From contig CAZFHY010000009.1 in assembly GCA_964519305.1 (NCBI GenBank), positions 75,130-139,129 on the forward strand: 64,000 nucleotides of DNA. Reading direction: 5' to 3'. Made by a program: the position numbers and the translations under genes. The stretch comes from Candidatus Undinarchaeota archaeon (lineage in GTDB: Archaea > SpSt-1190 > JASMDC01). The notes beneath the pieces are model-generated. The model ran no database searches and was not told the DNA's origin. It saw nothing but the letters and a program-made list of their open reading frames with translations. This document shows positions 1 through 27,608 of the stretch, in pieces. How positions within the stretch are numbered: position 1 is the stretch's first letter; every line of letters starts with the position of its first letter.

Positions 1-225
1 ATCATAGTGACCCACGACACGGAGATGGCCGCCCTTGCTGACCGGCAGATCAAGCTCATTGATGGCCATGTCGTGTCGGACATACGGAACCACAAGCCTG
101 AAGTGAAAGCAAAAGGCAAGCAGTCGAAGAAGATCCCTAAGAAGAAGAAGAAGAAGACCGCTCCCAAGAAGAAAGTGACTGGAAAGAAAGGGACCGGTAA
201 GAAGAAGACCAAGAAACCTGCTTGA
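1..225 (+). CDS. ABC transporter ATP-binding protein (LolD/MacB-type), 3' fragment with Lys-rich tail
   Basis: Frame 1 reads IIVTHD..A..ADR.I.L.DG (H-loop end of an ABC ATPase), then a poly-Lys tail; the 5' part lies outside the window. Confidence 0.8.
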   Translation: MIVTHDTEMAALADRQIKLIDGHVVSDIRNHKPEVKAKGKQSKKIPKKKKKKTAPKKKVTGKKGTGKKKTKKPA

Positions 226-234
226 ATAACGGGC

Positions 235-651
235 TCACGACTGCATGAGCGCCCGCTCCACACTGTCCCGCAGTTCCCACTCGGTATCGTACTCCCATAC
301 CTTGAGATTGGGGTGAGCGTTCCCTGCCACCAGTGCCGAGAGCCGGGTGCCCTTCTGGCAGAAGCAGTGGACTGGCTTCCCCCACTCCAGGGCCAGCCCG
401 ATCTCCATCCCAACGCCCAGGCTCGGACGTGACACCTCGGCGATGAGCATCTCGCTCGTCCTCAGCCACTTCATGTCCCGGTCGAATATCTCCCGTTGCG
501 TGAGGGCGGCCTCCCGCTCCATCACATCAGGTGCTACGACATGCTCGGTGAGCACCGTGTGCCCGAGGTCCCTGATGGCATCGGCCATGGCGCGGGCGTT
601 CCCGATAGCAGCGCGGTCACCGGCGATGGGGGCGGCGAGATAGACGTCCAT
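235..651 (-). CDS. Nucleoside 2-deoxyribosyltransferase / DNPH1 (Rcl)-like N-glycosidase
   Basis: MDVYLAAPI...IFDRDMKWL...IAEVSRPSLGVGMEIG motif; start moved to ATG 651. Confidence 0.8.
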   Translation of the reverse strand: MDVYLAAPIAGDRAAIGNARAMADAIRDLGHTVLTEHVVAPDVMEREAALTQREIFDRDMKWLRTSEMLIAEVSRPSLGVGMEIGLALEWGKPVHCFCQKGTRLSALVAGNAHPNLKVWEYDTEWELRDSVERALMQS

Positions 652-702
652 GGGAGGCGATAATGGGACGCAGCCTTTTATTTCTTGGTCGGGAGGTGAA
701 CA

Positions 703-1482
703 ATGGTGGACATGGTGCCCCTGCCCCGTCGCATCCTTCTTGCCTGTGACCTGGACGACACGGTCGCAGGCGATACAGAGGGTGAGCGCCGGTTCACAAC
801 TGCCGTGAAGCTGGCACGTGACGCAGGCGTGCTTGTCCTTGCTTACGTCACCGGAAGATACCTTGCATCGGGCCAGCGACTGGTCGCCCAGCTCGGTCTT
901 CCGGAACCGGACTGGTGGGGATGCGACTCGGGAGCTTCGTTGTATCAGGTAGTGGATGGGGAAGCTATTGAACTGACCGGAGAGCTTTCTCAGGGACAAT
1001 GGGACGCTGAACAAGTACGCTCACGTCTGTCCGGGCACCCCGCGCTCGTCCCGCAGGACTTCGACAACGTCCGTCGTGTGAGCTATATCGTGACGAACGT
1101 GGAGCCACAATCTGTTGTCCAGGAAGTGAGAGGAGCGCTGGTAGGACTAGATGTCAGCGTCGCGCTCATCAAGGGCAACGGTCTGGACGTGCTCCCCGTA
1201 GGATGTGACAAGGGCGTGGCCGTAGCGTTCATAGCAGAGCACGAGGGTATCCCTGCAGGTAACGTCCTGGTGGTGGGTGACAGCGAGAACGATGTCCCCA
1301 TGCTCACGGGAGGATTCGGCCGGGCCGTTATAGTGGGGAACGCGGAGCCACATGTTAAAGAGGCGTTAAAGAATGAGGGCGTCATTGTAGAATCGGCCAC
1401 CCATGGGACTGCCGTGGCCGATGCTCTCGAATCGTTCATCTCAGAACGTGGATTTGCCCCTTCACCTACGAAAAGTTATTAA
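703..1482 (+). CDS. HAD-IIB family phosphatase, sucrose-phosphate phosphatase-like
   Basis: CDLDDT, YVTGR, LDVLP..CDKG.A and GDSEND motifs; GGAGGTGA RBS before ATG 703. Confidence 0.8.
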   Translation: MVDMVPLPRRILLACDLDDTVAGDTEGERRFTTAVKLARDAGVLVLAYVTGRYLASGQRLVAQLGLPEPDWWGCDSGASLYQVVDGEAIELTGELSQGQWDAEQVRSRLSGHPALVPQDFDNVRRVSYIVTNVEPQSVVQEVRGALVGLDVSVALIKGNGLDVLPVGCDKGVAVAFIAEHEGIPAGNVLVVGDSENDVPMLTGGFGRAVIVGNAEPHVKEALKNEGVIVESATHGTAVADALESFISERGFAPSPTKSY

Positions 1483-1519
1483 GCGACGACCCTCGCCCAT
1501 TCTTACCTGACGGGGTAAC

Positions 1520-2548
1520 TTGGACGTGTTGTCCGAACATCTTACTTTAGATGGGGAGAAGGATTCCCCCTCGCCCCAGGGCTGGGCACCCGAGGACAAG
1601 TACCTCTGGGACTTCTGGACCGTCGAGAAGGATGGCCAGCACCACATGTTCTACCTCCAGGCACCCCGTGACATCTCCGATCCCGAGATGCGCCACGGGA
1701 TGGCGACTGTGGGGCATGCCGTCTCCGACGACCTCGTCAACTGGGAGGAGATCGGTACTGCTTTGGGACCGGGACCGAAGGGCTCGTGGGACGACACCAG
1801 TATCTGGACCGGCTCCGTCATCGAGAAGGACGGGCGCTACTTCATGTTCTACACGTCCCGCTCCTCCGAGGATGACGGCCTGATCCAGCGCGTGGGTCTG
1901 GCGACCTCGGACGACCTCGTCAACTGGGAGAAGCAGCCCGGACCCGTCATGGAGGCCGACGCCAGGTGGTACGAGAAGCTCGGCGATCCCGGTGCGACAA
2001 CCGAGTCATGGCGCGATCCGCAAGTGGTGTACGACCCGTCAGATGGTTTCTACCACGCCTACGTGTGCGCCCGTACCAACGAGGGACCGCTCGATAGCAG
2101 AGGATGCATCGCCCATGCCCGCTCCAAGGACCTCTATGACTGGGAGGTGATGGCGCCCATCAGCGCCCCCGGGCACTTCTCGCAGATGGAGGTGCCCGTA
2201 ATGCACAAGCACGGGGACAAGTACCACCTATTCTTCGCCACAGACGAACGGTCGTACTCTTCGACGCACGAGAACGAGATAGAGGGCGCTCCGCAGACAG
2301 GAGTGTTCATGTACGTGTCCGACCGGCCAGACGGCGGGTTCCGACCTGCTGGCAACGAGGTGGTCATGGGCAGCGATACCAACGCCTACACATGTCGGAT
2401 CGTGCAGGGTGAGGACGGTCGCGACCGGCTGCTCACCTGGCTCTTCGAGGCCGAGGGCAGGGACGGGTTCGCGGGCGTCATCGACACGCCGTACATCGTC
2501 AGCTACAACGACGATGGTTCCATCGAACTGGAGCGCGAGGTCTACTAG
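1520..2548 (+). CDS. Clan GH-J glycoside hydrolase (GH32/GH68-like beta-fructofuranosidase)
   Basis: WDFW nucleophile motif, GHAVS.DLVNW, WTGS, WRDP, QMEVP; no signal peptide; start uncertain. Confidence 0.8.
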   Translation: MDVLSEHLTLDGEKDSPSPQGWAPEDKYLWDFWTVEKDGQHHMFYLQAPRDISDPEMRHGMATVGHAVSDDLVNWEEIGTALGPGPKGSWDDTSIWTGSVIEKDGRYFMFYTSRSSEDDGLIQRVGLATSDDLVNWEKQPGPVMEADARWYEKLGDPGATTESWRDPQVVYDPSDGFYHAYVCARTNEGPLDSRGCIAHARSKDLYDWEVMAPISAPGHFSQMEVPVMHKHGDKYHLFFATDERSYSSTHENEIEGAPQTGVFMYVSDRPDGGFRPAGNEVVMGSDTNAYTCRIVQGEDGRDRLLTWLFEAEGRDGFAGVIDTPYIVSYNDDGSIELEREVY

Positions 2549-2605
2549 CCCGCTCGTCCAAAAGGTAGTTAAATCGATATACCTCCTAGTCTGAGGAGGA
2601 TCATC

Positions 2606-3313
2606 ATGGAGAGAGCGTCACATGCAAAGAGGACGGGACCCATCATCGCCGTCCTTGCGACCATAATCCTTCTGTCCTTCATCCCGCTTGCGTTCGATAC
2701 CTACTCCGTAACGAGGGAGAAGGGAGAGGTCGGTGCTTTCAAGGAGGGTGTCCAGTTCGGGTACGAGATGGCCACCGAGATGCTGGCTCGCGAAGTGGGT
2801 TCTTGCCAGCCTATAGAGCTGTCGCTGGGAGACAAGATCGTGAACGTGACCGCCGTCGACTGTATCCGTGAGCGGGATGTCCAGGCGGGAGCACGCGTAG
2901 GGCATGACCAGGCGCTCATTCAGCTCATAAACCAGGCCGCGTCGTGCGAACCGGTCGCCGTCCATATGCAGGACCAGACCATCAACCTCACCATGGTCGA
3001 GTGCGTCCAGAACCGTGAGCTGCAGTTGGGTGCTCAGTACGGGTACGAGCGCGCCCTCACGCAGGTCGTCGCGCAGGCAGTTACGTGCGAGCCCGTCCCT
3101 ATCCAGCTACAGAACCAGACGGTCAATGTGACGGCGTCAGGTTGCGTGCAGCAGAAGGACGTCCAGGCCGGCGTCCAGTACGGCTACGAGATGGCGGTGA
3201 CACAGCTGATGACCGAAGCACAGAAGTGCCAGCCGGTCACAGCAAAGGTGCACAATAGGACGATCGACCTGATAGCCGTTGAATGCCTACAACCAATGAA
3301 CGTGACCACCTGA
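2606..3313 (+). CDS. Membrane-anchored hypothetical protein with four 47-aa two-Cys repeats
   Basis: N-terminal hydrophobic segment, GAGGAGG RBS, repeat G.Q.GYE.A...C(Q/E)P...NVT...C. Confidence 0.8.
   Translation: MERASHAKRTGPIIAVLATIILLSFIPLAFDTYSVTREKGEVGAFKEGVQFGYEMATEMLAREVGSCQPIELSLGDKIVNVTAVDCIRERDVQAGARVGHDQALIQLINQAASCEPVAVHMQDQTINLTMVECVQNRELQLGAQYGYERALTQVVAQAVTCEPVPIQLQNQTVNVTASGCVQQKDVQAGVQYGYEMAVTQLMTEAQKCQPVTAKVHNRTIDLIAVECLQPMNVTT
2735..3295 (+). repeat. Intragenic tandem repeat, 4 x 141 nt
   Basis: Equivalent Tyr/His codons at 2762, 2903, 3044 and 3185 (period 141 nt); boundaries approximate. Confidence 0.85.
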
Positions 3314-3400
3314 TACGTGATCAGTGATCCACACAAGTACTCCTTTCAGTAGTCACGAAAACATATCATCACCGGGGACCATCATTACTGATGGCCCCCT

Positions 3401-3465
3401 GGCGATGATGAGAGCCTTATGATGGTAGGGGAGCTATCTCCGATGACCGACCAGGGTACTGAGCC
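3401..3465 (+). ncRNA. Candidate box C/D guide sRNA
   Basis: GGC-G-ATGATGA (C box 3405-3411) ... CTGA (D box 3459-3462)-GCC; terminal stem, internal ATGA/ATGACCG D'/C'-like boxes and a hairpin; intergenic. Confidence 0.6.
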
Positions 3466-3504
3466 TGTGGGGCCACCAACCTTTTCAACCTTTCCCCGCG
3501 CGCC

Positions 3505-4539
3505 CTACTCCAGGTCACCGCGCAAGAGCTCCTTGATCTCGTTGCGCTCATGCCGTGCCTGCTGTAGCGATTCGGGAACCCTGAGAAGGTGGTCCATGGA
3601 CATACCCTTGTAGAAGTATCCGCCCACATCCTCGTCAGGAGCGAGCTTCTCCTTGTGGGAGACAGCATACGAGAGGTTGTGGAGGTAGTCCTTCCCGAGA
3701 CAGACCGCATACTTCGGGACGTTGAACAGTAGGCGCCATCGCATGCCACCCTTCACGTCGTTGTCCGTCAGCTTCCGCTTCGCGGCCAGTTGGGCAAGGT
3801 TGAAGAACCTCGTCGAGGCGATGCGGCCCAGGGAGTGCAGGACAGGTGAATCATACCACGAACCGCCCCGCTCTCCTGTGTACTCGTAGATCGGGTTCTC
3901 ACCGCCCCATACGTGCTTTATCCGCCCCTCTTCCTCGAGACGGTCGAAGGCGGACTGGTAGGAGCTCTTGATCTGCTGGAACATCTCACCGTACGTACCG
4001 GCCACCTCCATGCGCTCGATGCGTTCGGCCATCTCTGGCAGTGCCAGCACCTTCTTCACGATGGCGGTCTCGACGATGTCGTTGCGGGTCAGGTAGATGG
4101 GGACGTCCTCGTCGAGCCCCTTGGCCAGGTAAGCAACGTCGTCTAGCGCTTTTGTAGCGATCTCATACTTGTTCTCCACGTCAAGGGATTCAACGTACTC
4201 TCCGCCCACGGGCGCCTCGTAGTTGAACATAGTGGTCCCCACGTGCTCCAGGGACAGGCCACGCGCATCGGTGATGCCCCGCTCGAAACCGTCACGAGTG
4301 AGGGCGATCGCATGCACCTCCACGTCGTCGATGTAGAAGGATTCGAACCCGGCCTTGTCCTCGTACCCGTCCTCGAGAACAACGAAACAGTCGACGTCGG
4401 ATGCGGGCTTTGCGTATCCGTTGACCCGGGAGCCGTACACAAGGACCGCCTTGGCAGCGTCGCCGTAAAGCTCACCGATACCGTCAACTGCGCCCTCGAT
4501 GAGGTCCGCGTTCTCCTCAGGTGTGGCCAGCATGGTCAT
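3505..4539 (-). CDS. Nucleotidyltransferase-domain (Pol-beta/MNT-like) protein with long C-terminal extension
   Basis: VLVYGSRVNG...SDVDCFVV motif; GGAGG RBS before ATG 4539. Confidence 0.75.
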   Translation of the reverse strand: MTMLATPEENADLIEGAVDGIGELYGDAAKAVLVYGSRVNGYAKPASDVDCFVVLEDGYEDKAGFESFYIDDVEVHAIALTRDGFERGITDARGLSLEHVGTTMFNYEAPVGGEYVESLDVENKYEIATKALDDVAYLAKGLDEDVPIYLTRNDIVETAIVKKVLALPEMAERIERMEVAGTYGEMFQQIKSSYQSAFDRLEEEGRIKHVWGGENPIYEYTGERGGSWYDSPVLHSLGRIASTRFFNLAQLAAKRKLTDNDVKGGMRWRLLFNVPKYAVCLGKDYLHNLSYAVSHKEKLAPDEDVGGYFYKGMSMDHLLRVPESLQQARHERNEIKELLRGDLE

Positions 4540-4746
4540 CCGCAGGTCCTCCGTCCTACTAGACTGCATTTGGAGGCAGATCACCCCTATTTAAGTCGTA
4601 TCTTGGGGCGCAGGTGTGCTGTTTTGTGTCACGTTCCGCTGCGGCTCTTCCATGTGCCGCAAGGGGTCCAGAATTAGGTCCGGCCACTGGCCGGTTCGGT
4701 CCCATCATTACCGAGGGCGGGAGGCCGTCCACCTTCAGGTGGAGCC

Positions 4747-4962
4747 TCACTCCCGCCGCTCGCGTGCCCTACGGTTTATCGTCGTGTTGTGGATACGGGT
4801 GAGGTATCCGGCAACCTTATTGCGCAGCTTGGATGTCGGGAAGGTAAGAAGTTCTTCCGCCATCTGCTTGTTCTTGTAGAAGTCACTTGAGAACACTTCA
4901 GGGTGGTCCTCATAGAGCTTACCTGCTACGCGCTTTACGAGCGTTGTGCGAATTCGTCCCAG
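4747..4962 (-). CDS. rps17e: 30S ribosomal protein S17e (CTG start; not in ORF track)
   Basis: Manual translation (M)GRIRTTLVKRVAGKLYEDHPEVFSSDFYKNK...SKLRNKVAGYLTR; RBS GGAGGTGA at 4968-4975. Confidence 0.93.
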   Translation of the reverse strand: MGRIRTTLVKRVAGKLYEDHPEVFSSDFYKNKQMAEELLTFPTSKLRNKVAGYLTRIHNTTINRRARERRE

Positions 4963-4981
4963 TCATTTCACCTCCTTTTCA

Positions 4982-5482
4982 TCATATCGTGTCCAGCTCG
5001 ATGAGCTGAGGCTCCATGGAGCCAAGGTCGACTATCATTACCGTAGGGACACCCGTGAGGTACGGGCAGGTCTCTCCGGGATTGACCAGCAGGGTGTCGT
5101 CCCGCTGGATGATCTCATGCTTGTGGGTGTGGCCGCGCACGACCAGGTCGTAGTTACCGGATGAGAGCACGGCGGATACAAGCTTGGGGCTCTCGCCGTG
5201 GAGCATGGCGACCCGGCGGTTGGCCAGCTCTAGGTCGGCGAACCTCCCGTGGAAGGTGGCGATCCCATCGAACTTCTTGGTGAGGAAGGGTATGTCGCCG
5301 TCGTTGTTCCCGAACACCGCGGCCATGGGCGGTTTGAGCTCCCTGAAGGCGCGTGCGGTGAACGGGGAGACGAGGTCACCGGCGTGGAGCACGTACTCCA
5401 CGTCCTCCCGGTTGAAGGTGGCCACAGCGGACTCGATGAAGTCGATGTTATCATGCGAGTCGGACATCACTCCGATCCTCAT
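4982..5482 (-). CDS. Metallophosphoesterase, YfcE/MJ0936 family
   Basis: SDSHDN, HAGD, GNND, HG, GHTH and NPG motifs. Confidence 0.92.
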   Translation of the reverse strand: MRIGVMSDSHDNIDFIESAVATFNREDVEYVLHAGDLVSPFTARAFRELKPPMAAVFGNNDGDIPFLTKKFDGIATFHGRFADLELANRRVAMLHGESPKLVSAVLSSGNYDLVVRGHTHKHEIIQRDDTLLVNPGETCPYLTGVPTVMIVDLGSMEPQLIELDTI

Positions 5483-5511
5483 GCAATACACCTCCTGTCA
5501 TGTACCATGGT

Positions 5512-6759
5512 CTACACCGAGTTCTCCAGGATGCGGATGAAGGCGGGGCGAGATACGAGCACGCTGACGAGCACCCCGAGGATGGTCGTGATGGCGAAGC
5601 CCTTCACAGCGCCCAGACCGACGAAGGTCAATGGCACCATCGCGCAGATGGTAGTGGAGGCGGCGGCGAAGATGATGAAGAACGCACGCTTGATGCGCGC
5701 CCGCCAGCCGTACACACGCTTCGTGTCCACGTCGCCCCGAATCATGGTGTCAGCGATGATGACCTGGTGGTCCACACCGGTCCCCACCGCGGCGATGATG
5801 CCAGCGATGGCGGCCAGGTCGATCTGCCAGTGGATGAGCGAGGCCATCCCGAGGATGAGGATTATCTCCGAGGTGGAGGTGAAGAGGATGGAACCGACCA
5901 TGTAGGGCTCCCGGTACTTGACGATGAGGACGCACGCCACTCCGAGCAGTGCGACGAGGCCCGAGACCACGGATTGCTGCTTGAAGTCGGAACCGAGCTT
6001 GGGCGACACGTCGTTGATGGTCACGATGGATAGCTTGGTCGGTAACGCACCGGTAGACAGCACTGCCTGGAGGTAACGCATCTCGGAGAGCGCCTCCTCG
6101 CGGCTGGACGACGAGCCCTCGATACGGGCCTCGGTCGCTGGCTTGCACGCCATGCCCGACGCGATGCGGAGGTCTGACTTGACCACATCGTCCACCCTCA
6201 GGACCAGGTTGCACGCGGGCTCCAGGTACTCGCCTGTGGGATCGCGGGTGCAGTTGCACGTGGCGTCGGCGAACTTCCGCGCCTCATCGAAGTGCATCTC
6301 CACAGAGAACCAGAAGCGGAATACGTTCTCGCTCACCTGCGAGGTCCCGCTGCGCTGGGCATCGGTGAAAACGCGCTTGGTCTTTGTGAAGATTGTCTTG
6401 TTGCGGATCTGGCCCTCGAACTTGCCCTCTGCTTCGAGGTACCGTTCCGCCTCGGTGCGGTTCACACCGGCGAAGTCGATTATGATATACGAATTGCCCG
6501 AGAGCACATCGCTGACCACGCGGGTCGTCACGTCCTTAAGGGCGATGCGGTTGATACGCTGGTTGATGACGTTCCGTGCCGTCTCCAGGACGTCGGGGCC
6601 CACGGTGGCGTTGGGGGCCATGACGACGCGGACACCGCCCGAGATGTCGAGCCCGGTGTCGATACCACGGAACACGACGAGCGTGATGGACGCGATGAGG
6701 ATGATCACGAGCAGGAGCACTTGAGGCTCCTTCAGGATCTTCTCGAAGTCCGGTTTCAT
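5512..6759 (-). CDS. secD: Protein translocase subunit SecD (archaeal type)
   Basis: GLDISGG, L.TGALP..L, SPKLG..F, AGII..VGTGVDHQ..I.D, GFAITTILGVL...VSRP. Confidence 0.93.
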   Translation of the reverse strand: MKPDFEKILKEPQVLLLVIILIASITLVVFRGIDTGLDISGGVRVVMAPNATVGPDVLETARNVINQRINRIALKDVTTRVVSDVLSGNSYIIIDFAGVNRTEAERYLEAEGKFEGQIRNKTIFTKTKRVFTDAQRSGTSQVSENVFRFWFSVEMHFDEARKFADATCNCTRDPTGEYLEPACNLVLRVDDVVKSDLRIASGMACKPATEARIEGSSSSREEALSEMRYLQAVLSTGALPTKLSIVTINDVSPKLGSDFKQQSVVSGLVALLGVACVLIVKYREPYMVGSILFTSTSEIILILGMASLIHWQIDLAAIAGIIAAVGTGVDHQVIIADTMIRGDVDTKRVYGWRARIKRAFFIIFAAASTTICAMVPLTFVGLGAVKGFAITTILGVLVSVLVSRPAFIRILENSV

Positions 6760-11153: not shown

Positions 11154-11288
11154 CTACCCGAAGACGTTGTCCCTGTCGAGCTTTACCATGGCCTTGTTGA
11201 TGCGCGACAGCTCATACCAGACATAGAACCCGATAACGAAATAGATCCACTGTGTGTACAGCAGAGCATCGGCCGTTGTGTCGATCAC
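11154..11288 (-). CDS. 44-aa single-TM membrane peptide (not in ORF track)
   Basis: MIDTTADALLYTQWIYFVIGFYVWYELSRINKAMVKLDRDNVFG; GTG start overlaps the upstream stop (GTGA); paralog of 11285-11428. Confidence 0.75.
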   Translation of the reverse strand: MIDTTADALLYTQWIYFVIGFYVWYELSRINKAMVKLDRDNVFG

Positions 11289-11428
11289 TCGTCACCGCCA
11301 TCCTTTCCACTCTTCACTGCGAGCTCTTCGACCGCCTGGCGGAGCCGTCGCACCTCGTAGCATAGAAGGGCACCGAAGATGGCCAGTGGCACCTGACTGA
11401 TTATGACCGATTCCGGTGTCGTTAGCAT
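11285..11428 (-). CDS. 47-aa single-TM membrane peptide (not in ORF track)
   Basis: MLTTPESVIISQVPLAIFGALLCYEVRRLRQAVEELAVKSGKDGGDE; GGAGTGA RBS; 24 nt after the PP-loop gene stop. Confidence 0.75.
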   Translation of the reverse strand: MLTTPESVIISQVPLAIFGALLCYEVRRLRQAVEELAVKSGKDGGDE

Positions 11429-11452
11429 GTTCGTCACTCCGTTGGATTATCC

Positions 11453-12574
11453 TTATACGTCTTTTCCACCGCGGGCACCACCACCTAGACCCACGGCCTG
11501 TTTCGCCCGCAATCCCAGATAGCGGTAGATAGCTCCTGTCAGACGTCGCAGCTGCTTGTTCCAGAGGGATGCTGCCGAGAAGTACACCAGGCCCTCAACG
11601 AACATCGACGACAGCATGGAGAACCGCACTATATCACCAATGGCCCGGTTGGATGCACCGGCCTCATCGTAACGCTGCCGGATGGTCTTGGCGGTCTGCT
11701 CCTCGACCGAGAGTTCGCGACGATGGTCCATACTCTCGAGCACGTCTTCTGGTGGTATCGGCTGCTCACGCACACGCTCGATGAGCGCGTCGAGGTCCTC
11801 TCCCTTCTCCTCGAAGTAGGTACGGATGATCGACCGACCGTATTCGAGGTCCGACTCCAAGTGGCGCACGACCTCCTCATGGATGAGATTGTCCGAGTAG
11901 GGATTGGAGAGGAACACGCCCACGACGTTGGCGAGCACACAGTAGGGCTGACGGTGTATGTGGTAGCCCTTGAGGCCTGGTGCACGGACCCGGTTCCCCA
12001 TATCGATGCCCAGCTCGCCCAGGGCTGCGTCCTCCTTCCCTACTGTATAGAAATAGGATGGATGGATATGTCGGATTCCGAACTCACCGTAGAAGCGCTT
12101 GAGAGTATCGAGAACTCCGGGCATCTGCTCGGGATTATGCACCTCTTCCTGGATGGCCCCATCAGCCGCCAGCGGTATAGCGTTCTCGAGACAGTAGATG
12201 ACCGTCCGCACGTGCATGATGAACTTGCAAGTGATGCAGGCGAAGTGGAGGCAGTCCCAGTGACGTACCTGGTTGTCCATCCACCAGGGAGGGATCGGCA
12301 TGATCGAATGACGTACCTTTCCAGGGAAGGCCTTCTTCAGTGCATCGGACGACTTCTCCGAGAACTTCACGAAGATATCGACGTCCGTCTCGTAGGTGAC
12401 GAGATGGACCTCGTCAAGGAGCCGGGAGAGAATGCCCGAGGCCAGTGACGAGTCGCCGCCACCCGAGAACATCACCGCTGCCCGTAGAGGTGTGCCCTTC
12501 GTCACGTCCCCCGGGTCCGTGTCGGTTGATTTAAAGGTTTGCGCTCCGCCGCTGTCGGCGCGATCATCCTTCAT
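11453..12574 (-). CDS. PP-loop (adenine nucleotide alpha-hydrolase, QueC-like) ATPase with C-terminal extension
   Basis: AVMFSGGGDS, VHLVTY, CITCKFIMH...I.YC.E..I, PEQ, QPYC. Confidence 0.8.
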   Translation of the reverse strand: MKDDRADSGGAQTFKSTDTDPGDVTKGTPLRAAVMFSGGGDSSLASGILSRLLDEVHLVTYETDVDIFVKFSEKSSDALKKAFPGKVRHSIMPIPPWWMDNQVRHWDCLHFACITCKFIMHVRTVIYCLENAIPLAADGAIQEEVHNPEQMPGVLDTLKRFYGEFGIRHIHPSYFYTVGKEDAALGELGIDMGNRVRAPGLKGYHIHRQPYCVLANVVGVFLSNPYSDNLIHEEVVRHLESDLEYGRSIIRTYFEEKGEDLDALIERVREQPIPPEDVLESMDHRRELSVEEQTAKTIRQRYDEAGASNRAIGDIVRFSMLSSMFVEGLVYFSAASLWNKQLRRLTGAIYRYLGLRAKQAVGLGGGARGGKDV

Positions 12575-12586
12575 CTGCGAGCCACC

Positions 12587-12967
12587 TCACGCTATTGAGA
12601 GCTGTCCGATGGCCCCGAGAACGACAAGGACGAGCGCCAGCGTCATCACGACGCCCGATAGCGCGCACAGGGGAGCGAAGTTACGGTAAACGATACCGCC
12701 TACGCCGGGCGAGTGCCTGAGGAGGCGTCCTACGATCCGGCACCTCGCTCGCGGGCTCACGTCGGGTTCGGCAAGGAGTACGGGAGCTGTGTCGGCCAGA
12801 TAGGATAGGTAGAATCGAGCAGGTGCCCTGTACCGCGGGAGCACGAGGGCCGTGAGAACTAGCACGGGAACGAACACGATGTTGAACGCTGTCGTGACCG
12901 CGAGCGCCAAGAGGAAACCCACATACGAAACAGGTTCCCGTCCCTCGTTCCCACCACAGCAAACCAT
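12587..12967 (-). CDS. Membrane protein with N-terminal MVCCGG motif (126 aa)
   Basis: True start at ATG 12967 with GGAG RBS; two hydrophobic segments; paralog of 14148-14468. Confidence 0.75.
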   Translation of the reverse strand: MVCCGGNEGREPVSYVGFLLALAVTTAFNIVFVPVLVLTALVLPRYRAPARFYLSYLADTAPVLLAEPDVSPRARCRIVGRLLRHSPGVGGIVYRNFAPLCALSGVVMTLALVLVVLGAIGQLSIA

Positions 12968-12998
12968 TAAAGGTACTCTCCTGTATCGCTCAATAATA

Positions 12999-13036
12999 CT
13001 TAACGGGGTAAAATATATTAACTTAACGCCGTTAAG
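12999..13036. promoter_or_regulatory. Divergent promoter with two palindromic sites flanking a TATA-like element
   Basis: CTTAACG-C-CGTTAAG (13022-13036) and degenerate CTTAACGGGGTAAAA (12999-13013) around AAATATATTA. Confidence 0.6.
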
Positions 13037-13046
13037 GTAGTGTATT

Positions 13047-13391
13047 ATGAAACCACCATGCGAGATTGTGACAATGCACATTCTCCCCGCTGTCCGGTCA
13101 TCCTTGTCGCGTATGCTGGTCGAGAAGCACGGGATGACGCGCGCTGCCGTCGCCAAGCGACTGGGCGTCACCCAAGCGGCCGTGACCCAGTACTTCAAGG
13201 CGGTGAGGGGCACCCGGAACAAGGAGGTCATCGACGAGAACTTCAGTGACCTCATCGATGATATCGCCACCCGCATCGCGCGGGGTGAGGACGAGCTCGA
13301 GGGCATCTGTGGTCTCTGCAAGACCATCAGGAACGATGAGCGGTTCAAGCGGTACATCGAGCGGGGCAAGTGCGACGTCTGTACGGGATAG
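13047..13391 (+). CDS. HTH transcriptional regulator with Cys-rich C-terminus (COG2522-like)
   Basis: MKPPCE.....LPAVR...A.RLGVTQAAV.QY....RG; CxxC...CxxC tail. Confidence 0.85.
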   Translation: MKPPCEIVTMHILPAVRSSLSRMLVEKHGMTRAAVAKRLGVTQAAVTQYFKAVRGTRNKEVIDENFSDLIDDIATRIARGEDELEGICGLCKTIRNDERFKRYIERGKCDVCTG

Positions 13392-13394
13392 GTC

Positions 13395-14147
13395 ATGCCA
13401 AAGCGTGAAAAAGAGCGAGAGGAACCACCTGACGATCGCGGGGACGATGTTGCCGTCCTGTTCTCAGGGGGAGTCGACTCGACAACGGTCGCCGTGCTGG
13501 CCGCCGAGCGGTTCAAGCGGGTTCATCTCCTCACCTTCAACACAGGCTTCCTCTACAACATGGACCTATCGGGCAAGCACGTGGTCACCCTCAAAGAGCT
13601 CTTCGGTGATGATGCCATACGTCACGAGCTCATCGACATCCGTCGCGTCTGGCGCGCCGTCCAGCGCACGAACATCACCTCGGACCTGCTGCGCTACCGA
13701 TCATGGTTCATCCTGTGCATGGGATGCAAGCTGACCATGCACGCTGCCACCATCCGCTACTGTCGTGAGCACGGGATACACCATGCCTATGGCGGCGAGA
13801 ACGTATGCCAGGACCAGTATCCCGAGCAGAAGCAGGCCATTCTCGACGAACTCCAAGGTCTGTATAAAGAGTACGACATCACCTATGAGTCGCCGGTGTA
13901 CAACTTCACGAATATTGAGGAGGACACCAAGCTCCAGTCCCTCGGGTTCCGGCTCGGACATCACCTCAAGCTCTTCCCTAATACCAAGGGTTCCTATCAC
14001 GGCACCCAGCCTTTCTGTCTCTCCTTCCCGATCTATCCTTTCGCGAACATGTTCCCACCAAAGGACACGCCCGTAGTCGAGTATCTCCAAGAGCACCTTC
14101 CACGGGCACGTGCGTTCATCGAGGACGAGCATAGGGAGGATGACTGA
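13395..14147 (+). CDS. PP-loop (QueC-like) ATPase, paralog of 11453-12574
   Basis: AVLFSGGVDST, VHLLTF, CMGCKLTMH...I.YC.E.GI, PEQ, QPFC. Confidence 0.82.
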   Translation: MPKREKEREEPPDDRGDDVAVLFSGGVDSTTVAVLAAERFKRVHLLTFNTGFLYNMDLSGKHVVTLKELFGDDAIRHELIDIRRVWRAVQRTNITSDLLRYRSWFILCMGCKLTMHAATIRYCREHGIHHAYGGENVCQDQYPEQKQAILDELQGLYKEYDITYESPVYNFTNIEEDTKLQSLGFRLGHHLKLFPNTKGSYHGTQPFCLSFPIYPFANMFPPKDTPVVEYLQEHLPRARAFIEDEHREDD

Positions 14148-14468
14148 ATGCCGTGCTGTGGCGTGTCCCCGGACACTAACACTCCGTTCATGCGGCTCTT
14201 CGTCTTCGTGCTCGGCCTATTCCTCAGCTTCCTAGCGCTCGTGAGGCCCGGGTATAGTAAGCTGGCGAGGAACGCCTATGCTTACGTCTTCAAGGGCACG
14301 GACATGGAGCGGCGGGTGAAATGCAAGCTCACCGGCCAGCTCATGCCCCGATACCCGCGCCTGGCAAGCTATCTCTACAAGACCTTCGAAGTGAACTTCC
14401 TGCGTGTGTCGGTCGTCGGGATGATCGCTCTCGTCTTCCTGGTCCGCCAGGCAATAGTGACGTTCTAG
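14148..14468 (+). CDS. Membrane protein with N-terminal MPCCG motif
   Basis: Starts immediately after the upstream stop; two TM segments; paralog of 12587-12967. Confidence 0.78.
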   Translation: MPCCGVSPDTNTPFMRLFVFVLGLFLSFLALVRPGYSKLARNAYAYVFKGTDMERRVKCKLTGQLMPRYPRLASYLYKTFEVNFLRVSVVGMIALVFLVRQAIVTF

Positions 14469-14472
14469 CGGC

Positions 14473-15507
14473 TCATGCCCCTATGTAGCGGGCATAGAGC
14501 GAGCGTGCCACGCTCGGATCATCGGTCCCTCGTACTAGCGCACGACCATCCTTGAAGACGACAAGCTCGTTCTCGGCCAGCGAGAGTGTGAGCGTGTGCT
14601 CTGTCAGCTGCACCTCGCCAAGGCCCCGGAGACGCTCCGATAGCTCCGGAAGGGAGAGTTCTCCTGATTTGGCCGGTGTCACCTGCACCATCTCTCGACC
14701 GCACATGATAGTGGTCAGACCGGTCCGTCCACCCTCAAGGAACTCGTAACGCCCCTCTCCACAGCATCCGCATCGCGGGTCCCGTGCGACCTCCACTCGC
14801 CGCAGCTCGCGCCGCCAGGCATCGTAGACGACAAGGTCCCTGTCAATGTCCTCCCGGCCCAGGATGAGCTTGAGGGCTTCAGAGGTCTCCAGTGCCCCGA
14901 TCACAAGGGGGAGGGTGTTGAGCACGCCGACGCGATCGCACGTATCCAGCGATCCGGGCGGGGGCAGGGAGGGAAGACAGCACCGGAGGCATGGCGTATC
15001 CCCAGGTACTATCGTCAGGCTCATCCCCAAGGTGGACACGGCACCACCGTACACCCACGGCACACCATGTTTCACGCATGCGTCGTTGAGTAGGAACCTG
15101 CTCTCGAGGTTGTCGGTGCCATCTATGACGACGTCCATTCCGTCAAGGAGGTCCTCAACGGTCTTAGGGCCCACGTCCTTGACAACACCTTCCACGACCA
15201 CATCATGGTTGATGGCCTGGAGGCGCTCGACCGCAGCGATTGCCTTGGGCGAACCTACGTCGCCCTCGTCGAACAGCACCTGACGCTGTAGGTTGCTCAG
15301 TTCCACAAGGTCCCGGTCGACCAGCCTCACATGTCCCACGCCCGCCCGGACGAGAGCGGATGCCACGACCGTGCCCAGGGCCCCGACACCGATGACCAGT
15401 GCCGACCCACCAGCGAGCCGTTCCTGTCCCTCGGTACCGACCTCGGGAAGGATTACCTGCCTTCCATACCTGTCGTCGGAGGGTCTGGGACCATCGGTAG
15501 TCGCCAT
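14473..15507 (-). CDS. ThiF/MoeB/E1-like adenylyltransferase
   Basis: RY.RQ, G.GALG, DRD.VE.SNLQRQ, DGTDN..SR, PCLRC, TC...GV, C..CG. Confidence 0.92.
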   Translation of the reverse strand: MATTDGPRPSDDRYGRQVILPEVGTEGQERLAGGSALVIGVGALGTVVASALVRAGVGHVRLVDRDLVELSNLQRQVLFDEGDVGSPKAIAAVERLQAINHDVVVEGVVKDVGPKTVEDLLDGMDVVIDGTDNLESRFLLNDACVKHGVPWVYGGAVSTLGMSLTIVPGDTPCLRCCLPSLPPPGSLDTCDRVGVLNTLPLVIGALETSEALKLILGREDIDRDLVVYDAWRRELRRVEVARDPRCGCCGEGRYEFLEGGRTGLTTIMCGREMVQVTPAKSGELSLPELSERLRGLGEVQLTEHTLTLSLAENELVVFKDGRALVRGTDDPSVARSLYARYIGA

Positions 15508-15614
15508 GATGGTGATATGATGGAGGAACAGGGATAAAAACATGGCCTTTTGGGCCTTTCCACGCCCAGGCCCAAGCGAAAAGTCCTAAAACCTTCCCCT
15601 CCTGCGACGGGGTG

Positions 15615-16796
15615 ATGGCGCTACCGGGTACCGTGCTCGTGCGATATGGTGAGCTCGCACTGAAGAAGGGCACGATCCGCACAGGTTTCGAGCGGGAGCT
15701 CGTCCGTAATATCCAGCGCCTCCTTGAGCACAAGGGCATTCAAGGAAAGGTCACCCGGGACCGCGGACGCGTGTTCATCGCTACCGACGAGCCACGTGCT
15801 GCTGCCGAGGCGACCGCACGCGTGTTCGGTGTCACATCGTGTTCCGTCGTCGAGACCTGTGGCGTAGAGATGGATGTCATCGTAAACGCCGTCGCGTCCT
15901 TCGCAGCAGAGCACCTCCCCTCTGACACATCGTTCGCCGTCCGGGCCCGCCGCGCAGGCACCCACTCGTTCACCAGCATCGATGTCGGTAAGGCCGTCGG
16001 CCAGGGTATACGCGACGAACGGCCTGACCTCACCGTCGACCTGGATGCACCTGTGAGCGAGGTGTTCGTCGAAGTGCGACAGAAAGAAGCGTACTACTTC
16101 CTCGACCGTGTGGAGGGCACCGGCGGCCTCCCCCTCGCCACCCAGGGCAGGACCGCAGTGCTCATCTCGGGTGGTATCGACTCGCCCGTTGCCGCATGGC
16201 TCATGATGAAGCGCGGTTGTGTCCCCATCTTCATCCACTTCGTGCTCGATCCCTTCTCCGACATGGCCAACCGCGACCGCGCAGTGGACATGTGCCACCG
16301 GCTCAAGTGCTGGGCCATCGGCCGCAAGGTCAAGCTATACCTCGTCCCGCACGGTGAGAACCTAGCCGAGATCGCGCGATCGTGCCCGCACCACCTCCAG
16401 TGCGTCCTGTGTCGCAGGATGATGTACCGTATCGCCGACGTCATCGCAGAACGCGAGCGTGCTCTCTCGCTCACCACAGGGGAGAGCCTCGGACAGGTGG
16501 CATCACAGACCGCTGAGAACCTCTTCGTCGAGGACAGGGTGTCCACACGACCTGTGTTCCGCCCGCTCATCGGCCTGGACAAGCTCGAGATCACGCGTAT
16601 CGGTGAGCGCATCGGTACGTTCGAGGTTTCGGTCAAACCGGCCGGGTGCTGCACGATAACCCCTGACCGCCCCGAGAAGCGGGGGAAGCTCCCTATCGTC
16701 GAGGAGGCGGAGCAGGCGCTGGACATCGACGCCCTTGTGAAGGCTGCCCTGGAGGGCGCCAAGATCGTCGAGGTGGAGGCGAAAGGATGCGAGTGA
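15615..16796 (+). CDS. thiI: tRNA 4-thiouridine synthase ThiI (THUMP + PP-loop, CxxC-type, no rhodanese domain)
   Basis: VRYGEL.LK, G.GGLP..TQG, LISGGIDSPVAA, CVLCRR.M, TGESLGQVASQT, RPLIG.DK. Confidence 0.95.
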   Translation: MALPGTVLVRYGELALKKGTIRTGFERELVRNIQRLLEHKGIQGKVTRDRGRVFIATDEPRAAAEATARVFGVTSCSVVETCGVEMDVIVNAVASFAAEHLPSDTSFAVRARRAGTHSFTSIDVGKAVGQGIRDERPDLTVDLDAPVSEVFVEVRQKEAYYFLDRVEGTGGLPLATQGRTAVLISGGIDSPVAAWLMMKRGCVPIFIHFVLDPFSDMANRDRAVDMCHRLKCWAIGRKVKLYLVPHGENLAEIARSCPHHLQCVLCRRMMYRIADVIAERERALSLTTGESLGQVASQTAENLFVEDRVSTRPVFRPLIGLDKLEITRIGERIGTFEVSVKPAGCCTITPDRPEKRGKLPIVEEAEQALDIDALVKAALEGAKIVEVEAKGCE

Positions 16797-17063: not shown

Positions 17064-18371
17064 CTATAACAGACCTGGCAGCCCGGTCACCAGCATCACG
17101 ACACCGATGAACAGGAAGAAGATGGTGGCGGCGATCTTGGTCCCTGCCACATGCTTCTTGAACAGGTCCTGCATGCTCTTTGACGTGGTCTCAAGGTAGG
17201 CGGCAACGAACACGATGACGAGCGGGGAGATGAACAGCAAGTTGTACAGGATCAGGTAGAACATGGCCTGTGAGCGCAGTTCGGGCACTCCGAGGATATA
17301 CACGATGGTCGGGAGATAGACCTGCCCCGTGCAGAGGAACTCGAAGAACGTGATGCCGAAGCCAACAAAGAAGGCGAAGGCCGCAAGGTACTCGGAGCGC
17401 GCTGCCGTCCGGACGATCGTATGGGTGGCCTTCTTGGCCCACTTGGGCATCTGAAGCGTCATCTCGTTCGGGTCACCGTCCCGGGCCCGGCAATAGTCGC
17501 GATAAGACAGGGCAGCGAACACGAGCGCTATGAATCCGGTGGCGGGATAGATAAGGGCCGACACAAGTGAGAAGCGCTCGACATAGACGAGCATACGCCT
17601 GAACCAGAGCCCCAGGAGAAGGTTGGCAGAGAAGACGCCAGCCGAGTAGAGGATTCCAATGAAGAGCACCTCCTTACCCTTCCGCTGGATGTAGGCAAGA
17701 TAGGATATGAAGAAGATGAGACCGGCGATAGCACAGGGATTGATGCTGTCGACAAGACCGGCTATGATCACAGCGGACGCAGAGAAGCTCGTGAAACGGT
17801 CGATGATTGAGTTACGTCCGGCCTCGACGCCTCCCGTATGGAAGACTTCGCACGAGCACGGGATCCCCTCTTCCGGTGCGGTGGATATGCTCTTCTCGAG
17901 CCCAGCGCGGACCTCCTCCTCACCTATGAAGTGGGTCTGGCCGACATAGAGGGCCGGGACGAAGGCACGTTTTTCCGGTGGGACGCCGAACTGTGCGTCC
18001 ATCGCCTCTTTGATCTCGGCGTTCTCAGGGAATAGGATGTTCATCTTATGGACATAGAGCCGAGGATGTCGGACCGCGAGCTCATCGAGGTAGGTCGACA
18101 CTCGTGCGCAAGAGCCACAGGTCGGAGAGTAGAAGTAGGCAACGCAAATGCCATTCGGTGGGCAGTCCATAGGCTCGTCGGCCACCAGCTCCTGTACAGT
18201 GGGAGTGGTGTCGGTCCCGCATGATTCGGCTACGATGGAGCATGCCTCGCCCTCAGCAGGCTCGGAAGTGCTCGTGCCAATATCTGAGGATGAGGCGATT
18301 GCCTCAAGACCCTGAGCGGCAGCTGCCGCGGGGACTAATATGAGAAGGAGCGCGATGATGAGCGCTCGCAC
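17064..18371 (-). CDS. Thioredoxin-fold + CcdA/DsbD-like transmembrane electron transporter fusion
   Basis: Signal peptide, YFYSPTCGSC, then GLVDSINPCA and FEFLCTGQVY in a multi-TM domain; GTG start inferred. Confidence 0.85.
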   Translation of the reverse strand: MRALIIALLLILVPAAAAAQGLEAIASSSDIGTSTSEPAEGEACSIVAESCGTDTTPTVQELVADEPMDCPPNGICVAYFYSPTCGSCARVSTYLDELAVRHPRLYVHKMNILFPENAEIKEAMDAQFGVPPEKRAFVPALYVGQTHFIGEEEVRAGLEKSISTAPEEGIPCSCEVFHTGGVEAGRNSIIDRFTSFSASAVIIAGLVDSINPCAIAGLIFFISYLAYIQRKGKEVLFIGILYSAGVFSANLLLGLWFRRMLVYVERFSLVSALIYPATGFIALVFAALSYRDYCRARDGDPNEMTLQMPKWAKKATHTIVRTAARSEYLAAFAFFVGFGITFFEFLCTGQVYLPTIVYILGVPELRSQAMFYLILYNLLFISPLVIVFVAAYLETTSKSMQDLFKKHVAGTKIAATIFFLFIGVVMLVTGLPGLL

Positions 18372-18378
18372 GACAGCG

Positions 18379-18915
18379 TCAGCAGCCCGCAATGCCCTCA
18401 CCGATCCCGCACACGATCCTGCGAAGCTCGTCGTAGGCAGTGAACCCGACCTTGACACGATCGCAGGCGAACACCAGAGTGGGTGTCGCCCGTATACTGT
18501 AGCCTCGGCTCATCCTCATGGCCTCGTCGAACGCTGTCTGTCCCACCTCGTCGACACACTTAGCACCGTCGTCATCCTTGAAGGCGATGCATTGCTTGTT
18601 GAGGTCGAATCCGTCACCGAGCTCCTCCTTCAGGCGCTCGAGGCCCGGTTTCGTCTTCACGCAAGCACCACACGATGGCGCATAGAAGTAGTCCAGGCGT
18701 ATCTTTCCCGGCTCAAGGCACTCGTCGATCCGGTCGAGGACCCGGAGCCCGAATCCATCCACAACGGGAGCACTGCCGCCACCAGGGCCCATAAGGAACA
18801 CACCTCCGACGACGACCGTCATGAACAGGCCGACCAGGAGGAGAGTGCGCGCGACAGGGATTTCGATATCCGTGTCCTTTCCCTTGTTCCGTTTCTTATG
18901 GGTCACTCTCCCCAT
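18379..18915 (-). CDS. Membrane-anchored thioredoxin-family protein
   Basis: TM helix, DYFYAPSCGAC, ATPTLVF cis-Pro loop; GGAGG RBS. Confidence 0.85.
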   Translation of the reverse strand: MGRVTHKKRNKGKDTDIEIPVARTLLLVGLFMTVVVGGVFLMGPGGGSAPVVDGFGLRVLDRIDECLEPGKIRLDYFYAPSCGACVKTKPGLERLKEELGDGFDLNKQCIAFKDDDGAKCVDEVGQTAFDEAMRMSRGYSIRATPTLVFACDRVKVGFTAYDELRRIVCGIGEGIAGC

Positions 18916-27206: not shown

Positions 27207-27608
27207 ATGAAGCTTCCTTGTGAGATCATCGTATGGTACCTTCTACCAAGCATCCGTGGCGAGCTCGCCAAGGAACTATCCCGAAGTGGCCTTCGACAGA
27301 AGGACATCGCTTCGCGGTTAGGTATCACTCAGCCTGCCGTTTCCCAGTACCTAAAGGACAAACGCGGCCAAGAGCTCAAGCTCTCGAAGGAGGCTCTCAC
27401 CAAGGTACATGCTCTGGCAAAGAAGATGGTCGATAAGGTGGACGAGTCGATCGTGCGTACTGAAGTGTGTGCCATCTGCGCTATCGCTAAGGAGGGGAAC
27501 CTCCTGTGCGACATCCACCGCAGCCTGGAAAAGGTCCCGGAGGACTGCTCCGTTTGTTCGAAGGAAGACGATTGTATGCTCATAGGCGGTGGAGGGGAGG
27601 GTATTTGA
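27207..27608 (+). CDS. HTH transcriptional regulator with Cys/His-rich C-terminus (COG2522-like), paralog of 13047-13391
   Basis: MKLPCE.....LPSIR...Q.DIA.RLGITQPAVSQYL..KRG; CAIC...C.IH...CSVC. Confidence 0.88.
   Translation: MKLPCEIIVWYLLPSIRGELAKELSRSGLRQKDIASRLGITQPAVSQYLKDKRGQELKLSKEALTKVHALAKKMVDKVDESIVRTEVCAICAIAKEGNLLCDIHRSLEKVPEDCSVCSKEDDCMLIGGGGEGI

Follow-up and report, generated by a model that had tools for sequence, protein, structure and literature searches.

Organization of the divergent gene cassette

The window considered here is a stretch of 64,000 nucleotides from the genome of a Candidatus Undinarchaeota archaeon (GenBank assembly GCA_964519305.1; contig CAZFHY010000009.1, positions 75,130 to 139,129), and our analysis concerns a cassette of seven open reading frames (ORFs) that occupies positions 11154-14468 of this stretch. 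According to the ORF list of the window, these genes form two arms that diverge from an intergenic region of 79 nucleotides (nt), and each arm carries one gene for a PP-loop ATPase (ATPase1, ATPase2) and one gene for a small hydrophobic protein beginning with M-x-C-C-G (memb1, memb2) (Table 1). A conserved module of two genes, in which an ATPase is accompanied by a partner protein tipped with a Cys-Cys (CC) pair, is thereby present twice in the cassette. A first-pass annotation, made from the DNA letters without database searches, had described a mirror-image cassette at this position; all seven of its ORFs are present, and the motifs that it listed are seen in the alignments.

The two ATPases share 30% identity over 231 amino acids (E value 2e-26) and have the motifs SGGxDS, CxxCKxxMH, YC, PEQ and QPxC in common; memb1 and memb2 are 29% identical over 85 amino acids (E 3e-7) and share ALVxPxY...AR and RxxCxxxGxLxxxxP....YxxF. 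Given these alignment E values, both pairs are paralogous beyond chance. ATPase1 possesses a C-terminal extension of about 120 amino acids with a hydrophobic or amphipathic segment. The ATG start codon of memb1 is located at position 12967, not 12970, and is preceded by a Shine-Dalgarno-like AGGAGAG 9-15 nt upstream, and the ATG of memb2 abuts the stop codon of ATPase2, with a Shine-Dalgarno-like GGGAGGA 8-14 nt upstream. The imperfect palindrome in the intergenic region could, by conjecture, serve as operator and promoter.

Table 1. Features of the cassette and its surroundings in the window, and gene families found next to members of the ATPase family at other loci
Feature	Position or locus	Strand	Remarks
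pep2	11154-11288	-	44 amino acids; micropeptide with a single transmembrane segment
pep1	11285-11437	-	50 amino acids; micropeptide with a single transmembrane segment; GTG start; stop overlaps pep2 start
ATPase1	11453-12574	-	373 amino acids; divergent paralog of ATPase2
memb1	12587-12967	-	126 amino acids; N-terminus MVCCGG; loop motif RARCRIVGRLLRHSPGVGGIVYRNF
Imperfect palindrome	12999-13036	.	14-nt arms, 86% complementary, around an AT-rich TATA-like stretch in the intergenic region
HTH_3 (XRE-type) regulator	13047-13391	+	114 amino acids; PF01381, E 1.2e-5; C-terminal CxxC...CxxC
ATPase2	13395-14147	+	250 amino acids; YcfA-like PP-loop (AANH) adenylating enzyme by sequence and fold
memb2	14148-14468	+	106 amino acids; N-terminus MPCCG; two hydrophobic segments; basic loop with RVKCKLTGQLMPRYPRLASYLYKTF
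ThiF/MoeB	14473-15543	-	PF00899, E 3.5e-71; adjoins the cassette
ThiI	15612-16796		TIGR00342, 310 bits; beyond ThiF/MoeB
NodU/CmcH-type carbamoyltransferase	L026, L028, L029, L033, L042, L044; own C4 paralog		Carbam_trans_N/C
Aminotran_5	L028, L029, L035, L042, L053		Two copies in L035; fused in L053
Radical S-adenosylmethionine (SAM) enzymes	L027, L041, L045, L046, L047, L050, L052, L053; own C4 locus		Often B12-binding
Glycosyltransferases	L032, L041, L048, L050, L053
DegT aminotransferase	L033, L034, L044
GDSL lipase	L036, L046, L047
LPG-synthase-type and PMT-type membrane proteins	Own C4 and C1 loci

The PP-loop ATPases and their nearest relatives

When a profile of 10 members of the ATPase family was searched against solved proteins, the nearest one was YcfA (9kq6), with an E value of 1.2e-30 over profile positions 9-178; QueC came second (E 1e-7) and was aligned in the PP-loop region only. 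Comparison of folds leads to the same relative. The AlphaFold2 model of ATPase2, which has a predicted local distance difference test (pLDDT) value of 90, has YcfA (9kq7) as its top match in Foldseek (template-modelling scores TMq 0.75 and TMt 0.85; E 3e-16), and QueC, TtuA, NcsA, ThiI and LarE follow with scores of about 0.45-0.5. Together with the pyridoxal phosphate (PLP) enzyme YcfC, YcfA belongs to the 6-thioguanine system of Erwinia amylovora (9kq6, 9kq7, 9kq9). As described in the text of the YcfA study (PMC12494993), YcfA activates guanine nucleotides by adenylation at O6 and attaches free L-cysteine to them through its thiol, with Asp19, Glu134 and Gln135 as catalytic residues and with Tyr128 and Gln129 positioning and activating the free L-Cys; YcfC subsequently cleaves the C-S bond to yield a thioamide.

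The catalytic Asp19, Glu134 and Gln135 of YcfA align with the Asp of the SGGxD motif and the Glu-Gln dyad of the family (Asp28, Glu144 and Gln145 of ATPase2, where SGGVDS spans residues 24-29); the dyad Gln is invariant in the family and its Glu is found in at least 90% of the members. In YcfA, this dyad prepares a carbonyl of the amide type for adenylation. The columns of Tyr128 and Gln129 are variable across the family and are occupied by C-Q in ATPase2 and by E-E in ATPase1. A further likeness concerns the Aminotran_5 family, to which cysteine desulfurases and the C-S lyase YcfC belong. With each species represented by a single genome, a scan yielded 30 loci with true family members in other phyla (L026-L055), and Aminotran_5 is adjacent to, or fused with, the ATPase in five of them. 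The sulfur-related role envisioned in the first-pass annotation is therefore plausible, with a thioamide-forming enzyme as nearest relative and Aminotran_5 recurring at related loci. YcfA differs from the family in that it lacks the cysteine triad described below, uses free L-Cys as donor without a protein partner, and forms a soluble tetradecamer.

ATPase2 contains five cysteines, at positions 108, 111, 123, 138 and 208, of which the one at position 138 (VCQ) is not conserved. Cys108 and Cys111 (C108xxC111K) and Cys208 (Q205-P-x-C208) are invariant both in 47 diverse members selected by their CxxC motif and in 31 members; among 154 family proteins, 121 have CxxC[KR] and 99 have Q[PA]xC. At the CxxC positions of this triad, YcfA has Gly and Glu. 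In TtuA and TtcA, three cysteines arranged as CxxC...C hold a [4Fe-4S] cluster. The text of the CtaC study (PMC6772006) describes this motif for the Fe-S-dependent thioamide synthetase CtaC as well, and notes that such three-Cys clusters leave an open iron site. By analogy with TtuA, TtcA and CtaC, the triad of the family would likewise bind a [4Fe-4S] cluster. When the family was aligned with the ThiI protein of the window by hhalign, the PP-loop alone was aligned, and the triad was thus not placed on known cluster ligands.

The ATPase family is large: an exhaustive profile search gave 979 representative clusters at E values of 1e-3 or below and 213 at 1e-30. No curated Pfam or NCBIfam model covers it, matches being confined to the N-terminal PP-loop region, and the Pfam scan gave no match of PF01171 (ATP_bind_3) to the ATPases of the cassette; the PF01171 protein of this genome is encoded on contig C1. 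The genome of the window archaeon harbors five paralogs of the family, and ATPase1 sits on a long branch of the ATPase tree. About 10 of the 23 longer family representatives possess a hydrophobic N- or C-terminal extension of their own (P0042, P0075, P0108, P0112, P0140, P0017, P0018, P0096, P0046, P0126). In two further proteins (P0064, P0131), the ATPase carries a C-terminal fusion to a domain like 2-thiouracil desulfurase (PF04463; E 3e-7 and 8e-7, under the curated cut-off), and by their domain make-up these fusions appear to link some family members to thio-nucleobase chemistry.

Membership in QueC was considered and rejected. ATPase2 scores 34.2 bits with TIGR00364, against a cut-off of 150.3, and matches this model over residues 21-83 only; PF06508 gives 33 bits on residues 20-85, and ATPase1 has no QueC match. 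The text of a 2026 survey of PF06508 proteins (PMC13329287) defines canonical QueC by a C-terminal C(x)8CxxCxxC zinc motif, which is absent from the sequence of ATPase2. A role as preQ0 synthase was set aside as well, since a separate true QueC, scoring 178.3 bits and hence above the cut-off, is encoded on contig C12. Kinship with the QueC-like QatC and Cap9 proteins of anti-phage systems, which the first-pass annotation had brought up, did not survive comparison: NF041925 gives 13.1 bits against a cut-off of 280, and the partners begin with M-x-C-C, not with MG[GT]S. Yet the logic of a partner acting through its N-terminal tail is analogous in the two cases. The statement that no defence genes lie nearby holds, as PADLOC found no defence system, the weak QueC match (E 0.0048) being its sole result.

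The Cys-Cys-tipped partner and its pairing with the ATPase

In 12 of the 30 loci from other phyla (L026-L032, L035, L036, L039, L042, L047, with L029 and L031 being near-duplicates), a gene on the same strand whose product starts with M-x(1-6)-CC begins -25 to +25 nt from the stop codon of an ATPase gene. Starts of the type start-x(1-2)-CC followed by at least 50 amino acids occur 185 times on both strands of the archaeon's own 3.63-Mb genome, a background of about 2.5e-5 per position that makes chance placement of CC starts next to ATPase stop codons negligible. Carriers of the module are found among the Myxococcota, in a Methanosarcinales metagenome-assembled genome (MAG), in MAGs labelled as Pseudomonadota, and among the Omnitrophota, in addition to the window archaeon and a congener. 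Five other module-bearing genomes gave six partner matches, none of which is more than 1.4 kb away from an ATPase match and five of which directly adjoin one. The copy numbers of ATPase and partner agree as well, with 2:2 in the window, in L030 and in L036, and 3:3 in L039. Finally, a partner domain starting with MGSCC and the ATPase are joined in a single protein in P0056, whose partner domain is recognised by the partner hidden Markov model (HMM) with an E value of 2.3e-7, or 1.5e-5 when the CC columns are left out. The linkage that had been proposed for the cassette is hence conserved across phyla. On the two points by which the first-pass annotation had staked its proposal, a place of the ATPases within QueC clades and a want of conserved linkage to CC-tipped proteins, the low QueC scores and the conserved pairing both speak in its favour.

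Homology of the partners does not depend on the CC motif alone. A tblastn search with memb1 recovers the partners of L047 (3e-7), L032 (1.6e-5), L039 (4e-4) and L042 (1e-3), and four tblastn matches (L039, L035, L047, L030) align through the C-terminal RxxCxLxGxLxxxxPxLxGxxYRxF motif alone, yet the ORFs concerned begin with CC. In an alignment of 18 partner sequences the Cys-Cys pair is the sole invariant element; since these sequences were picked by their CC motif, this invariance is partly by construction. The N-terminus of the partner is kept in the database entries P0161 and P0162. In four of 14 public partner entries (P0159, P0163, P0164, P0166), which include memb2 of the window, an internal Met had been chosen as start, and the Cys-Cys pair is lost from these entries.

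The partner is as a rule embedded in the membrane. Four partners lack a hydrophobic segment (best 19-residue hydropathy at or below 0.9), and for this reason the CC tail is predicted to be cytoplasmic in at least some partners. In partners with two such segments, the loop between them is rich in Arg and Lys. With the partner HMM, neither the archaeon's own genome nor the remaining loci (L033-L105) yielded additional copies. Longer, fused forms of the partner were not found in a search for them, a negative of little weight, and a search of the ESM Atlas with memb2 gave scores of at most 0.83 and no family. In the ATPase tree, the partner-bearing members fall into two large clades. A YcfA-like clade (L043, L049, L051, L055) is set apart with support of 98/96 and has no CC partner; in three of its four loci (L043, L049, L051) a NUDIX gene follows the ATPase gene.

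Comparison with other PP-loop systems

CtaC, TtuA, TtcA and NcsA resemble the family in possessing a PP-loop and a CxxC...C triad, and these enzymes swap oxygen for sulfur after adenylation. The closthioamide enzyme CtaC acts on peptides tethered to a carrier protein, and about 75% of its homologs are, according to the text of the CtaC study, encoded beside thiotemplate genes (PMC6772006). Such genes are seen at none of the 30 loci studied here. TtuA draws its sulfur from a C-terminal thiocarboxylate carrier, in contrast to the N-terminal CC tail that we envision below. LarE is a PP-loop enzyme as well and obtains sulfur from a cysteine of its own protein or from a three-Cys cluster; it differs from the family by the TIGR00268 score (22 bits against a cut-off of 150), by a TM score of about 0.47, and by the lack of a LarB/LarC context.

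The closest parallel to a dedicated partner with a motif at its extreme N-terminus is provided by Cap9-CdnD of type IV cyclic-oligonucleotide-based anti-phage signalling systems (CBASS) and by QatC-QatB. In the part of the Cap9 report that we draw on, the N-terminal tail (MGGS) of the partner CdnD, which is unstructured and conserved, enters the active site of the QueC-family enzyme as nucleophile, the same role is proposed for the MGTS tail of QatB, and the start sites of these partners are often mis-annotated (10.1101/2025.09.03.674047), as is the case here. These systems differ from the cassette in that an amine of MG[GT]S, not M-x-C-C, provides the nucleophile, in that their enzymes are true QueC-family members with a zinc site, and in their anti-phage context.

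A mechanistic proposal and its alternatives

Our favoured proposal, which is tentative and falls just short of what we would call probable, is that the enzyme adenylates a substrate and that the N-terminal Cys-Cys tail of the partner supplies a thiol or persulfide. It is framed by two precedents: the cysteine thiol used as nucleophile by YcfA, and the N-terminal partner tails of Cap9 and QatC. The ATPase would adenylate its substrate, probably a membrane-associated one, at a carbonyl, and the CC tail of the partner would then enter the active site of the enzyme, where the thiol or persulfide of one Cys would be the nucleophile and the other Cys of the pair would resolve the intermediate. As outcome, either oxygen would be replaced by sulfur in a thioamide-type product, or the partner would be left S-linked to the substrate; the partner might also tether the enzyme to the membrane. 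A vicinal Cys pair fits a persulfide-carrying and a resolving cysteine, the pattern of ThiI and MnmA, and in MerA and thioredoxin reductase a terminal vicinal pair of Cys or selenocysteine has the role of a shuttle.

Several observations weigh against this proposal. The partner is missing from 18 of the 30 loci (two of them at a contig edge) and from three of the five ATPase paralogs in the own genome, where both partner genes lie in the window, so that the enzyme can work without it. The neighbours of the family are heterogeneous and do not indicate a single substrate, and the Pfam scan found no Aminotran_5 gene in the window cassette. The cysteine triad could bind Zn instead of an Fe-S cluster. 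By the positive-inside rule, a basic loop inside the cell would place the CC tail outside, where a cytoplasmic enzyme would not meet it; the four partners without a hydrophobic segment, and the P0056 fusion, which needs a cytoplasmic C-terminus, argue against such an outside location. In addition, five small genomes of the same class that have no family ATPase (G013, G008, G005, G007, G011; loci L010-L014) encode membrane proteins of 130-307 amino acids that start with MIC, MVAC or MVIC, carry a Cys-rich YGNCNG tail and are weakly like the partner (E 1.9e-7 to 8e-3). They are encoded next to DsbA or thioredoxin, one of them is a DsbA fusion, and a cysteine desulfurase gene is present in L010 and L011; from this setting they may represent an undescribed membrane thiol-redox family. 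The occurrence of such look-alikes beside DsbA and thioredoxin genes and without the ATPase hints at a thiol-redox ancestry of the partner, instead of a carrier role.

The alternative that fares best, unlikely but to be taken seriously, makes the partner the end substrate: the ATPase would permanently conjugate an adenylated small-molecule carboxylate or carbonyl to the CC tail, or would act on the tail itself, backbone thioamidation and the formation of a thiazoline being examples. The PP-loop enzymes Cap9 and QatC do target a conserved motif at the very N-terminus of their dedicated partners, and the 1:1 copy numbers, the translational coupling of the partner gene to the ATPase gene and the sole invariance of CC in the 18-sequence alignment, itself partly by construction, fit this idea. 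Against it stand the nearest relative YcfA, which yields a small-molecule thioamide and not a protein adduct, the conserved loop motif and membrane segments of the partner, which are typical of a working subunit, and the neighbouring Aminotran_5 genes, which fit sulfur supply better. The defence context of the Cap9 and QatC systems is also absent by PADLOC.

Rather improbable, in our view, is a partner that serves as anchor or scaffold only, with its CC pair either ligating a metal (as fourth ligand of an Fe-S cluster, or Zn) or being lipidated, and with no part in substrate chemistry. This reading draws on the hydrophobic extensions that about 10 representatives, and the C-terminus of ATPase1, carry in place of a partner, and on the open iron site that three-Cys clusters possess (PMC6772006, in the text consulted). 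The four partners without a hydrophobic segment nevertheless keep both CC and adjacency to the ATPase, and an anchor needs no invariant vicinal Cys pair at its extreme N-terminus.

HypE/HypF chemistry and the QueC-catalysed conversion of an amide to a nitrile through adenylation suggest a third scheme, in which the NodU/CmcH enzyme would carbamoylate a Cys of the CC tail and the PP-loop enzyme would dehydrate the resulting thiocarbamate to a thiocyanate, for delivery of cyanide or thiocyanate. We consider it highly improbable: carbamoyltransferase genes accompany the ATPase at the six loci and the own C4 paralog listed in Table 1, four of these loci also having a CC partner, but none is present in the window cassette or in eight of the 12 partner-bearing loci; they occur beside partnerless members as well (L033, L044), and the enzyme is nearer to YcfA than to QueC. 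That the ATPases are ordinary preQ0-making QueC enzymes or QatC/Cap9 anti-phage components has a practically negligible probability, since the weak matches to PF06508 (33 bits, residues 20-85), QatC and the PADLOC QueC model are outweighed by sub-cut-off scores, a match limited to the PP-loop, the missing zinc motif, the separate true QueC and the absence of a PADLOC system.

Lineage-specific parts and gene neighbourhoods

Judging from their distribution, the helix-turn-helix (HTH) regulator and the two micropeptides appear to be lineage-specific additions to the module. The first-pass annotation had placed the cassette under a Cys-rich regulator; the HTH protein is real, but tblastn found it neither in the other family loci nor in the paralog loci of the own genome. 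A paralog of the regulator is encoded in the window at about 27207-27488 (+; G000:C9:102336-102617), with 38% identity over residues 1-91 (E 4.8e-11). The micropeptides, likewise proposed as parts of the cassette, are present and are kept in G001, a genome of the same genus, with amino acid identities of 88% (pep1) and 91% (pep2) against a DNA identity of 85.5%, but were not found by tblastn in family loci beyond this genome. The ThiF and ThiI genes do adjoin the cassette as had been pointed out, and G001 has a ThiF-like ORF beside its own cassette, but Pfam scans of neighbouring genes found neither family beside other family loci; because their adjacency is limited to this genus, we have dropped both as components of the system.

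The genes for TFB, L37e, Sm and S8e are located immediately upstream of the cassette. Just past ThiI, the window encodes a protein of 464 amino acids (17064-18458, -) in which, as judged by eye, an N-terminus with a thioredoxin-like CxxC (SPTCGSC) is fused to a membrane domain that has several passes and looks like CcdA/DsbD; a role in thiol-disulfide electron transport is possible.

The gene families that recur beside the ATPase at other loci are compiled in Table 1. Taken with the hydrophobic extensions of family members, these neighbours point to a membrane-associated substrate and to envelope or lipid chemistry. Three loci deserve separate mention. In L053, from the Omnitrophota, the family ATPase is fused to a NifS-like Aminotran_5 domain (3998-5935) with QGGCC in the linker, and is flanked by B12-radical SAM and glycosyltransferase genes. 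In the own genome, L006 (G000:C1:265000-276000, positions 3582-6326) holds a second divergent ATPase pair without CC partner (4760-5473, -; 5583-6326, +), one member of which converges on and overlaps a gene for a SepCysS/SepSecS-like PLP enzyme (3582-4763); two tandem membrane proteins of 612 amino acids follow, and the one that was scanned matches PMT_2. The fifth ATPase paralog (5158-5961) is part of L007 (G000:C4:131000-141000, positions 125-5961), a cluster with a radical SAM enzyme carrying an HMPTM zinc ribbon, a NodU/CmcH carbamoyltransferase and two LPG_synthase_TM proteins.

Novelty and biological meaning

The enzyme belongs to a known superfamily, in which it stands beside a characterised branch; what is new is its dedicated CC-tipped partner. 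Our literature searches, the supplements of the papers cited here aside, turned up no account of an N-terminal Cys-Cys protein that accompanies a PP-loop enzyme, and the pairing is likewise not found in section 8 and the searched passages of the 2026 PF06508 survey (PMC13329287). This survey leaves the archaeal clusters 7, 8 and 10 unexplored (PMC13329287), and the supplementary cluster tables of the survey might list the ATPase family among them. A practical lesson can be drawn for anyone who searches for further examples, namely that gene callers often pick an internal Met of the partner and thereby lose the CC motif.

PP-loop enzymes are known to obtain their sulfur or nitrogen from free ammonia or glutamine, from free cysteine (YcfA), from a cysteine of their own (LarE, ThiI), from cluster-bound sulfide or thiocarboxylate carriers (TtuA, probably CtaC), or from the N-terminal amine of a partner (Cap9; proposed for QatC). 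If our proposal is correct, a partner with an N-terminal Cys-Cys tail would be another solution to the donor problem, and it would join the thioamide-forming YcfA branch to the logic of partner-tail nucleophiles known from phage defence. The gene neighbourhoods of the family, with radical SAM enzymes, carbamoyltransferases, glycosyltransferases and lipid-related membrane proteins, point to an as yet unknown sulfur-containing envelope or lipid chemistry. In its widest form, which is possible but on balance doubtful, the proposal is that these genes represent an unrecognised two-component class of PP-loop systems, scattered among bacteria and archaea. In place of free cysteine, sulfide or a thiocarboxylate carrier, a dedicated, membrane-anchored CC-tail protein would provide the thiol, and the system would give rise either to membrane lipids or envelope glycans with sulfur substitutions of the thioamide or thiocarbamate type, or to a new S-linked conjugate of a protein and a metabolite.

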